32,675 nt of DNA from Cladosporium halotolerans. Lineage: Eukaryota. Shown in pieces: positions 11,163 to 13,718 of the stretch. How positions within the stretch are numbered: position 1 is the stretch's first letter; each line of letters begins with the position of its first letter. A program made the translations under genes and the position numbers. The stretch covers positions 1 through 32,675 of the forward strand of contig NW_027191526.1 of the NCBI RefSeq assembly GCF_011745625.1, written 5' to 3'. The notes under the pieces are model-generated. The model had not been told where the DNA came from, did not search any database, and saw nothing but the letters and a program-made list of their open reading frames with translations.

Positions 11163-12062
11163 TTAATTTATAGGCCCACGTACTCTTTCTCAACTCTGTA
11201 TAGCTGATGTTACATCAGCTATAATTGGACTAGTTCTGGCATTAAGGTTAATAGTATTGTAATTTCTATGTGCACCATTAATGTTAACATTGATTCCATT
11301 AGTTCTTATTGCAATTAGAGCATCTCTTCTGCTATCAACAGCCTCATTTAAAATTTTTAATTCAGTTTTTAGTATTGAACAAGTTTGGTCCCCTTGAATC
11401 AAGTGATGACCAGTCTCATTTTTAAAAGCTGGGGAGTTATTGCTAGCATTATAATTTTCTATACAAAAATTAAAATTTACATTGTGATCATTCAATGTAT
11501 TTCTTAAATTATCTCTAGCTTTAGTAGCCATTGAATCTTTATGATCGAAATCGAGTATAAGTTCTCGCTGAAAAGGAGTAACAGTAGAAAAACCACCGGT
11601 ATTATAATTTGCATTACCCCCGGGATTATTATTTGCATTACCACCGGGATTATTATTTGCATTACCACCGGGATTATCCATTAGAAGAGGTGAACTAGAA
11701 TCTGTAAAATCACACAAAGGATACGTCATTTTTATATATATTACAGACGGAAGACATTGTAATAGTATTGAAAAGGTATCACTATTTTCAATATTTATTA
11801 TTATCAAAGATATTAAAGCCGAATAAAAAAAAAGAAATAGAAATCTTAAACATGTAAGTAAATCACGTTCATTAAATAAAATTAAAACCAATGTAATTAA
11901 ACAAGTGTAAAGCCCGGCTAATACAGGGTATAAATGATGTAGATTAAGCAGACCCATAAATAATTTAGCTGGTAATAATAATATTATGGAAAAAAGTAAT
12001 GAAATGATAAAGTTATACTTTTTATTATAAAGAAAATTAAGAATTTTTTTGATATTAATTAT
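11163..12062 (-). CDS. Orphan 299-codon C-terminal extension of cox1 (or a 264-aa ORF from ATG 11957): 3-4 hydrophobic segments, NPGGNANN repeats, helical C-terminal domain
   Basis: Same frame as cox1 (13541-11957 is a multiple of 3), no TAA/TAG across the junction, and the track's TGA at 11190 is Trp. Confidence 0.75.
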
Positions 12063-13718
12063 ACTTTGTAGAGGTAAACTTACAAATGCGTGAGGTTTAG
12101 GAGGGCTGTTTAAACATCATTCTAAACTACTGTATGCTCTGTTTAATAAACTTTGTAAGTAATCTGTATAGAACTGAGGTGTTAATCATGGGTATCTAGA
12201 TACACTTTTACCTTCAACTAGTTGTAAGTATACAATGTATAAAAATAATCATGTTGCTACAACAGATATTATAGAACCAAAACTACTTATTATGTTTCAT
12301 CCTGCAAATGCGTCAGGATAGTCACTTATTCTTCTGGGCATACCTTGTAAACCTAAGAAGTGTTGAGGGAAGAATGTTACATTAACCCCTATAAATAATA
12401 TTCAGAAATGAACTTTACTTAACATTATGTTATAATCTAAACCTAACATTTTTGGTATTCAGAAGTATCACCCACTAAATAATGCAAATACGGCACCCAT
12501 ACTTAAAACATAATGAAAATGAGCAACAACGTAGTAAGTATCGTGGAAAGCTATATCTAAAGAAGCGTTTGCTAATACAACTCCTGATAAACCTCCAACA
12601 GTAAACATAAATACAAATCCTAATGCAAATAGCATTGTAGGTGTTAAATGTAGAGATCCACCGTAACAAGTAGCTAATCAACTAAATATTTTAATACCAG
12701 TAGGTACTGCTATTATTAAAGTTGCAGCTGTAAAGTAAGCTCTTGTATCTACATCTAACCCAACACTGTACATGTGATGGCTTCAAACAACAAAACCTAA
12801 CACACCAATTGACATCATAGCATAAACCATACCTAAATATCCGAAAATTGATTTGTTAGAGCTTGCTGAGATTGTTGTACTTATTATACCAAAACCTGGT
12901 ATAATTAATATGTAAACTTCGGGGTGACCGAAGAATCAGAAAAGGTGTTGGTATAAGATAGGATCTCCACCTCCTGCTACTTCAAAAAATGATGTGTTAA
13001 AATTTCTGTCTGTTAAAACCATTGTTATTGCACCAGCTAAAACAGGTAATGAAAGTAATAATAATACAGCTGTAACAACAACTGCTCATCCAAATAAAGC
13101 TAATTTGTGTAGTCTTATTCCTGGACTTCTCATGTTCAATATTGTTGTAATGAAGTTCATGGCTCCTAATAGACTACTTATTCCAGATAGATGTAGAGCG
13201 AATATTGCCAAGTCAACACTAGGTCCACTGTGACTTTGTATTCCTGATAATGGAGGATATAGAGTTCACCCTGTTCCTGCTCCGTTTTCTATAGTTGCAG
13301 CAAATAAAAATAATATTAAACTGGGTGGTAATAACCAGAAACTTATATTATTTAGTCTAGGAAAGGCCATGTCCGGCCCACCTACTAATAAAGGTAGTAA
13401 GAAATTACCAAACCCTCCTATTAGTGCTGGCATAACCATGAAGAAAATCATTAATATTGCGTGTGCAGTTATTATACTATTATATAATTGGTTATCTGCT
13501 ATATATTGAACACCAGGTCCAGATAACTCTATTCTTATCAATACAGAGAAAGCTGTTCCAAGTAAACCTGAGAATAGAGAAAAAATCAGGTATAATGTCC
13601 CTATATCTTTCGCATTACTAGATAGGAATCAACGTTCTAATCATAAAGTTATTTTCGTATTTTTTAACTCTAAGTCTCTTCTGAAAGTTCCAATTTCTTG
13701 ATTTATGTTAAAGTTCAT
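11163..13718 (-). CDS. cox1: Cytochrome c oxidase subunit 1, intronless; conserved part 13718-12063, continuing in frame to TAA at 11163-11165 (851 codons as written)
   Basis: [55 protein letters not shown], then no stop codon. Start ATG at 13718 is tentative. Confidence 0.93.
11593..11677. repeat. 24-nt tandem repeat, about 3.5 copies (CCACCGGGATTATTATTTGCATTA), encoding NPGGNANN
   Basis: Units start at 11593, 11617, 11641 and 11665. Confidence 0.9.

Follow-up and report, generated by a model that had tools for sequence, protein, structure and literature searches.

The chimeric open reading frames (ORFs) of plant cytoplasmic male sterility (CMS), among them T-urf13, orf79 and pcf, encode small membrane proteins that stand in frame with pieces of essential genes; they lie beside recombination repeats, borrow the expression signals of core genes, are dispensable and evolve fast. 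Mobile ORFs at the 3' ends of genes, such as the Allomyces atp6 element and the mORFs of Glomeromycota, encode homing endonucleases, and fused cox1/cox2 ORFs occur in Acanthamoeba, Dictyostelium and Pleosporales fungi, the amoebal product reportedly being processed. Here we compare with these systems the cox1 gene of a 32.7-kb stretch of fungal-type mitochondrial DNA that reads TGA as tryptophan and has a GC content of 28.7% (contig NW_027191526.1, positions 1 to 32,675; hereafter the window, meaning this whole stretch). This cox1 lacks a terminal stop codon and continues in frame into a 299-residue extension. We propose, at a probability of roughly 0.6, that the fusion is translated and thereby provides expression for a membrane module that is autonomous and possibly selfish.

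The cox1 reading frame and its junction

Read with translation table 4, the ORF at 11163..13718 on the minus strand comprises 851 codons, which divide into 552 residues of COX1 and a 299-codon extension. The features of this frame are as follows.

12063..13718, minus strand: cox1 core, residues 1-552 with the first ATG of the ORF taken as residue 1 (candidate start), with no terminal stop codon.
12055..12070, minus strand: junction, ...CAA AGT / ATA ATT..., without a stop in frame 0 and with a TAA in the +1 frame.
11163..12062, minus strand: extension and stop, 299 in-frame codons with TAA at 11163-11165, belonging to an unnamed mitochondrial membrane-ORF family.

An initial annotation, made from the letters of the window, had described a cox1 without a stop that runs in frame into a 299-residue membrane ORF ending at 11163, and its ORF coordinates and frame are correct. 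Its rendering of the junction as CAA AGT A TAA is likewise accurate, in that the TAA is present in the +1 frame. The Pfam COX1 family (PF00115) matches residues 38-484 with an E value of 2e-148, and the COX1 assignment applies to residues 1-552 only. Solved fungal COX1 chains, which are 534-538 residues long, can be aligned to their very ends, which fall at query positions 551-553; this identifies S552 (AGT, 12063-12065) as the canonical COX1 C-terminus. Beyond this residue the frame is open to an extent that composition does not predict: in 20,000 shuffles of the 897-nt extension the mean number of in-frame stops was 18.5, the minimum was 5 and zero was never reached, composition alone gives an open frame a probability of 4.8e-9, and the five alternative frames of the extension hold 6-36 stops each.

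The window, whole or in part, is contained in 20 public sequencing runs from 16 studies, four of which were compared in detail. Two contigs from other studies than the possible sources of the window bridge the junction: X10 covers 11648-12171 (524 nt) with two substitutions and no gaps, and X9 covers 11835-13210 (1376 nt) with one substitution and no gaps. No indel near 12063 is listed in any of the four compared runs. The stop-less cox1 fusion is thus confirmed as genuine at the DNA level.

Relatives carry the same arrangement. A protein from an independent assembly, P0002, shows the same fusion, with 365 of 366 COX1 residues and 276 of 299 extension residues identical and no gaps. More distant relatives retain a nearly unchanged COX1 tail in front of a strongly diverged extension: in P0003, 145 of 146 tail residues but only 80 of 262 aligned extension positions are identical, and in P0032/P0043 the corresponding values are 91 of 93 and 71 of 234; in both cases the in-frame junction is kept. 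The cox1 match stops at residue 552 in each of P0002, P0003 and P0032, and in P0007 and P0014 the module is preceded by a diverged cox1 tail (residues 538-552). As far as these protein comparisons reach, the fusion is kept in evolution, with the same junction present in relatives whose extensions are only about 30% identical. A comparison of cox1 3' ends, which the initial annotation had proposed, returns the same in-frame junction, at the protein level, in P0002, P0003 and P0032/P0043. Since contigs from other studies lack an indel and diverged relatives keep the junction, both an assembly error and a recent acquisition are excluded, which removes two earlier suggestions: that a one-nucleotide insertion or assembly error had caused the fusion, and that the ORF had been acquired recently. 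The simplest reading of the sequence is that the frame would be translated as a COX1 read-through polyprotein.

Architecture and codon usage of the extension

Four segments can be distinguished in the extension, numbered here from its own first residue.

12015..12062, minus strand: basic amphipathic helix, residues 1-16, with four Lys/Arg and no Asp/Glu, conserved at the start of the family domain.
11724..12014, minus strand: membrane domain, residues 17-113, with three strong transmembrane (TM) helices and a weaker fourth.
11583..11723, minus strand: low-complexity disordered linker, residues 114-160, starting with an LLMDN motif, with a predicted local distance difference test score (pLDDT) below 50.
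11166..11582, minus strand: helical hairpin and terminal helix, residues 161-299, as predicted by AlphaFold2 (AF2), conserved in the cox1-fused subgroup and in P0004.

The initial annotation had expected three to four hydrophobic segments, an (NPGGNANN)x3 linker and a helical C-terminal domain, and all three are borne out. The hydrophobic segments are three strong ones (residues 16-42, 43-65 and 67-93) and a weaker fourth (97-113), and the linker repeat is encoded by a 24-nt tandem repeat in three copies at 11575-11670. When AF2 was run with the family alignment, it predicted a helical membrane domain at residues 4-113 (pLDDT about 80-90), a disordered linker at 115-158 and a helical hairpin with a last helix at 163-298, the C-terminal helices being placed at 163-206, 211-256 and 279-298; the overall mean pLDDT is 71. 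The TM domain is the best conserved part of the extension, 109 of its 113 residues being identical to P0002, and within the membrane domain P31, L39, P46, C54 and F78 are nearly invariant across the family alignments. The sole tryptophan of the extension lies in residues 161-299 and is encoded by TGA.

Codon usage in the extension is native and bears no foreign signature. The GC content at third codon positions is 0.161 in the extension, lower than in the cox1 core (0.201) and within the span of the other genes (0.078-0.169). The codons CTG, GCC, GGG, TCG and CCG, whose rarity in the cox1 core had been taken to set the extension apart, account for 9 of 299 extension codons, against 12 of 552 core codons and 28 of 2399 across eight further genes; the remark that they are rare in the core is literally true, but it does not amount to a signature of foreign origin.

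Similarity to described proteins was sought at the level of sequence and of predicted structure. At E≤0.01 Pfam gives no match for the extension, nor for the module in 31 family members, and a PDB sequence profile search with the extension returned nothing beyond noise at E 0.68. Foldseek against the PDB gave generic helical hairpins (best E 0.66). A wide VIA-align search, in which the TM domain was hardly covered, gave generic antiparallel hairpins for residues 161-259 with a best Z of 11.6, below the background of about Z 13 for helical models.

A family of mitochondrial membrane modules

The extension had been called an orphan, a label that does not survive a phmmer search of 1.84 billion representative proteins, which returns 30 proteins at E≤1e-3. 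These define a family of mitochondrial ORFs without an established name, which numbers at least 30 clusters when grouped at 50% identity. The family alignment comprises 29 of the 30 phmmer matches together with P0002; P0016, a long repeat protein that matches the tail only, was omitted. The hallmarks of the family are a basic helix, three to four TM helices, an L-x-M-D/E-N/G motif, a linker rich in G, S, N and P, and a variable helical tail. Because the hallmark residues, the L-x-M-D/E-N/G motif and the linker are all present in the window extension, we assign it to this family. A tail motif, GHH..Q.D.TCS, is common to the window extension and P0004 and is found more loosely in P0003. The family hidden Markov model scores the window extension at 227 bits and detects no second copy within the window. 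Family members occur in mitochondrial contexts only, and no expression signals of the family's own were seen.

Wider searches added little to this set. The extension alone gave no matches among proteins of 164-524 residues in a word-indexed search of 5.8 billion proteins, and a profile of the family alignment found P0008 as the sole match among the best 8000 candidates scored from the same collection. JGI metagenome contigs searched with the extension yielded 277 pattern matches, none of them confirmed; in IMG/VR, P0001 as query retrieved unrelated cox1 loci only (L007, at 68% identity, and L008), and P0043 retrieved none. Literature searches, conducted largely at the level of records, found no description of the fusion or of the family.

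Carriers of the module

To place the module relative to its hosts, 31 proteins (P0002-P0032) were compared with the window's own mitochondrial proteins, and 10 of the 31 contain an upstream piece of a host gene at E<1e-3. The cox1-borne members at this threshold are P0002, P0003, P0032 and P0007, with matches ending at residue 552, and P0010, in which, as in P0047, a diverged patch of cox1 residues 517-552 precedes the module. The N-terminus of nad2 is carried by P0027 and P0010, residues 1-21 of nad5 by P0019 and P0031, the N-terminus of nad1 by P0025 and atp8 by P0009. Weaker carrier matches are those of P0014 to cox1 (E 0.008) and of P0029 to nad4L (E 0.019). Pfam independently detects COX1, NADHdh and Fun_ATP-synt_8 in family members. 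The CMS-like architecture that the initial annotation had seen in the window thus holds at the family level, as relatives are in-frame chimeras with 5' pieces of nad1, nad2, nad5 and atp8. Matches between family TM segments and those of nad3, nad4, nad6, atp6, nad4L and nad1 (BLASTP E 3e-4 to 0.05) were set aside as compositional.

A tree of the TM domain was built from 30 rows, P0004 being excluded as too short, and its backbone is without resolution. Several groups within it are supported: the cox1-borne P0007 pairs with the free P0020 (97/87); P0010 and P0014, which retain a cox1 relic, group with the nad1-fused P0025 (100/99); and a 12-row clade (80/84) combines free, atp8, cox1, nad2 and nad5 forms, so that the cox1-fused rows do not form one group. 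As the supported groups mix carriers, we conclude that carriers have been exchanged repeatedly.

Metagenome loci of relatives show the arrangement at the DNA level. At L001, whose core genes are 90-94% identical to those of the window, an intact nad2-nad3 pair and trnV are followed by a 92-codon 5' piece of nad2 in frame with the module. This nad2-fused copy lies 570 nt downstream of the intact nad2-nad3 pair, and its nad2 piece is therefore a duplicate. At L004 and L006 the same module occurs after nad3 with a different N-terminal helix and is followed by a degenerate second copy.

Partly degenerate second copies stand in tandem after the first at L004 1011-1496 and at L001 6673-7017, from which it follows that the family duplicates and decays locally. 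In four of six metagenome loci the paralogous family ORF downstream of nad3 shows a change from glutamate to a stop at one and the same codon (L001 6221-6223) on both nad2-fused and non-fused backgrounds, with the next 150 codons open; this could be a recent nonsense allele, the result of haplotype recombination, or the boundary of a two-part product.

Mitochondrial context of the window

Besides cox1 the window contains nad1-6, nad4L, cob, cox2, cox3, atp6, atp8, atp9, rns, rnl and more than 20 tRNA genes. The genes cox2 (21397-22149) and cox3 (7926-9137) stand apart from cox1, and the extension shows no match to the profile of either. Two series of tRNA genes, R(tct)-C-R(acg) and S(tga)-I-W-S(gct)-D-G, have the same order in Pseudocercospora fijiensis (PMC7999263), and the window lineage is, to judge from its sequence, probably a Capnodiales-like Dothideomycete. 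An affinity with Malassezia was considered and rejected: for this genus PMC10113387 gives the conserved blocks cox3-nad6, trnV-cox2-nad1 and trnD-nad4L-nad5, with introns only in rnl, cox1 and cob, and these gene blocks and intron sites do not match the window. Cladosporium mitogenomes, which lack rps3 and have 14 genes plus two ORFs (PMC7748871), are compatible with it. By Pfam, no rps3 family was found among the 17 window ORFs of at least 80 codons that were scanned, the window being perhaps not the whole genome.

One further feature adjoins the extension.

10964..11123, minus strand: inverted duplicate of the nad2 5' end, 160 nt, 97% identical to the source copy at 1336-1495, with ATG changed to ATA.

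This duplicate begins 40 nt downstream of the extension stop and is probably a recombination scar of the type that carries family members in relatives. A stop-to-stop frame at 10887-11147 on the minus strand (86 codons) consists of the duplicated nad2 5' end followed by about 30 unrelated codons, and is possibly what remains of a nad2-borne chimera of the kind present in L001. No displaced cox1 3' relic was found downstream of the extension in the window.

A second inverted repeat, of trnV and its flank, lies at 706-807 and 21268-21369 (102 nt, 100%). The nad2-nad3 block is inverted in the window relative to L001, where cox3-nad4L-nad5-nad2-nad3 lie on one strand, and the two inverted repeats (nad2 5' and trnV) look like scars or substrates of this inversion. 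Contigs X9 and X10 part from the window at 11120-11138, at the edge of the nad2 5' repeat, and each continues differently beyond this breakpoint, which suggests alternative arrangements or other strains.

The introns of the window offer a few further observations. An element of about 55 nt with a conserved core recurs at 5730-5784, 8574-8628 and 16785-16839 with 64-73% identity, where nad5, cox3 and nad1 are interrupted; it presumably represents a core element common to their introns, and Rfam at the gathering threshold gave no intron family at these sites. An intron ORF that bears LAGLIDADG_1 and LAGLIDADG_3 domains extends nad5 exon 1 in the same frame (4896-6992, minus strand). This intron is absent from L001, whose nad5 is continuous over 654 codons. 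The rnl gene of the window has no large intron ORF.

Interpretation of the fusion

Under the proposed translational fusion, the mitoribosome would start at the cox1 start codon, meet no stop after S552 and read on through the 299 codons of the extension. The family as a whole would gain expression by riding in frame, either on the 3' end of cox1 or on duplicated 5' pieces of nad1, nad2, nad5 and atp8, and these duplicated pieces would supply a start codon together with the first TM helices. The C-terminus of COX1 faces the matrix; the positively charged first helix of the module would stay there while the TM helices insert co-translationally, which would leave the tail of the extension in the intermembrane space if there are three spans and in the matrix if there are four. 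In the other carriers the fusion point follows the single TM helix of ATP8, TM helix 1 of ND1 and of ND5, and TM helix 3 of ND2; by the topology of these proteins each would also deliver the module from the matrix side. Once made, the module may be clipped off COX1, or it may stay at the edge of complex IV and be tolerated there. That C-terminal fusions to COX1 are structurally tolerated is seen in PDB 2yev_A, a natural chain in which subunits I and III are fused. Because the same module rides on unrelated carriers, its role would not be COX-specific, and its fast divergence, the turnover of its copies and the polymorphic stop point away from a respiratory subunit and towards a gene that is dispensable and possibly selfish.

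Several observations weigh against this interpretation. The C-terminal end of yeast Cox1 is reportedly needed for feedback control of Cox1 synthesis, a finding ascribed to Shingu-Vazquez et al. 2010, and a permanent 299-residue appendage on COX1 could be costly for such control. The +1 frame has a TAA exactly at the junction. The synonymous-codon fit of the extension to other genes is somewhat poorer (-0.98 vs -0.74 to -0.85), the extension protein diverges far faster than COX1, and both substitutions in X10 are nonsynonymous (V47I and L48F), a pattern that fits relaxed constraint as well as conflict. The paralogous family ORF has an in-frame stop in four of six metagenome loci (L001, L002, L003 and L005; L004 and L006 lack it), and family members can therefore be lost. 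Members that appear to be free may be gene-calling artefacts, which makes the chimeric share of the family uncertain. As to expression, RNA-library contigs from two studies are identical to parts of the extension (X15 at 11277-11541 and X16 at 11243-11486) and hint weakly at transcription; they may stem from contaminating DNA, and transcript ends and levels are not readable from contigs. No RNA-library contig over the junction is listed for X15 or X16, where uncovered parts carry no inference. Pieces from X15 and X16 that match the cox1 core belong to other organisms, with 11-44 differences per piece.

The extension might alternatively have been gained specifically for COX, as a new subunit or assembly factor of this lineage that is fused permanently to COX1 in the way that some bacterial oxidases join subunit III to subunit I. 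A junction exactly at the canonical C-terminus in at least four lineages and a TM domain that is the best conserved part of the extension (109 of 113 residues shared with P0002) would suit such a role, for which 2yev_A provides a workable precedent. The module is nonetheless also found on fragments of nad1, nad2, nad5 and atp8, which are unable to assemble into complex IV, and after nad3 in close relatives; it resembles neither cox2 nor cox3 and matches no sequence in Pfam or the PDB, and its very fast evolution and the stop polymorphism of its paralogues speak against such a role. On balance we consider a COX-specific gain unlikely. A different and bolder proposal, to which we attach small credence, is that the cox1 3' end serves as a landing pad for selfish membrane modules, which would recombine on and off essential genes via patches, these being the cox1 3' sequence or the duplicated 5' piece of another core gene that copies elsewhere in the genome retain. 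Each mitochondrial lineage would thereby have its own, rapidly diverging COX1 tail, and these tails would act in mitochondrial competition or incompatibility after hyphal fusion. Plant CMS genes would then have a counterpart in fungi, one built on the pattern of the interchangeable C-terminal cassettes that bacterial polymorphic toxins possess.

Other alternatives concern how, or whether, the extension is made. It could be produced chiefly as a separate protein by internal initiation on the cox1 transcript, for example from the ATG that encodes extension residue 36 or from the ATA/ATT of the junction, and the continuity of the frame would then be incidental. An ATG does lie 35 codons into the extension, and gene calling gives some family members as free ORFs with a start close to TM1. 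Yet M36 falls within TM1, past the conserved basic helix; ribosomes arriving from cox1, which meet no stop there, would still enter the extension, and the stop-less in-frame junction is kept in lineages whose extensions are about 30% identical, all of which makes internal initiation as the chief source improbable. The TAA directly after codon 552 in the +1 frame raises the prospect that ribosomes slip into this frame at AGT-A-TAA, frequently or in a programmed manner, and thus terminate most COX1 chains at the canonical residue; one mRNA would then yield normal COX1 and the fusion, with the fusion a minor product or the extension hardly made. With 24 stops in 299 codons of the +1 frame, a stop at a given place has about an 8% chance of occurring, the P0032 extension opens with a lysine whose codons are incompatible with a +1 stop at that point (as deduced from the protein), and a frame kept over 299 codons requires translation in frame 0. 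Such slippage is very improbable in our estimation, and on the sequence there would be no need for a +1 frameshift to explain the fusion. That the deletion of one A gives AGT TAA is also the one point in favour of an artefact, in which an assembly error or a private one-nucleotide insertion removed the stop from a frame that is open by chance or decaying. Independent contigs without an indel, relatives that share the fusion, a chance of about 5e-9 for an open frame and the conservation of family residues reduce the likelihood of this explanation to almost nothing. We therefore retain the translational fusion of an autonomous module as the explanation of the cox1 extension.

Implications and comparison with known systems

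Annotation of fungal mitogenomes usually takes extra ORFs as noise and a stop-less cox1 as an error, and here the stop-less cox1 is real and conserved. Automated annotation would truncate cox1 or miss the family, and metagenome gene calling under code 11 cuts such genes at TGA. If translated, the frame would give a natural 94-kDa COX1 precursor or variant in a fungus with relatives common in air and other environmental samples; it would bear on possible uses of the Cox1 C-terminus in assembly control and would provide a tractable system for testing CMS-like selfish mitochondrial genes in fungi.

Compared with fused oxidase subunits, the locus resembles the Thermus caa3 oxidase I+III chain (PDB 2yev_A), in that the C-terminus of COX1 continues into another membrane protein without a stop, but the partner is neither COX2 nor COX3 and has no known homologue outside its family. 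With the mobile ORFs fused to gene 3' ends it shares a frame that continues from the 3' end of a core gene, and the P0010/P0047 copies carry a cox1 3' patch. In contrast to these elements, the extension contains no LAGLIDADG, GIY-YIG or other Pfam domain, although the same Pfam scan detected the LAGLIDADG ORF in the nad5 intron of the window. The resemblance to plant CMS ORFs lies in the family members being in-frame chimeras with fragments of essential mitochondrial genes. The differences are that the window copy, known here from sequence alone, is fused to a complete and presumably functional cox1, and that the module, unlike plant CMS ORFs, each of which is a unique mosaic peculiar to its species, comes from a conserved domain family that is reused on many carriers across species.

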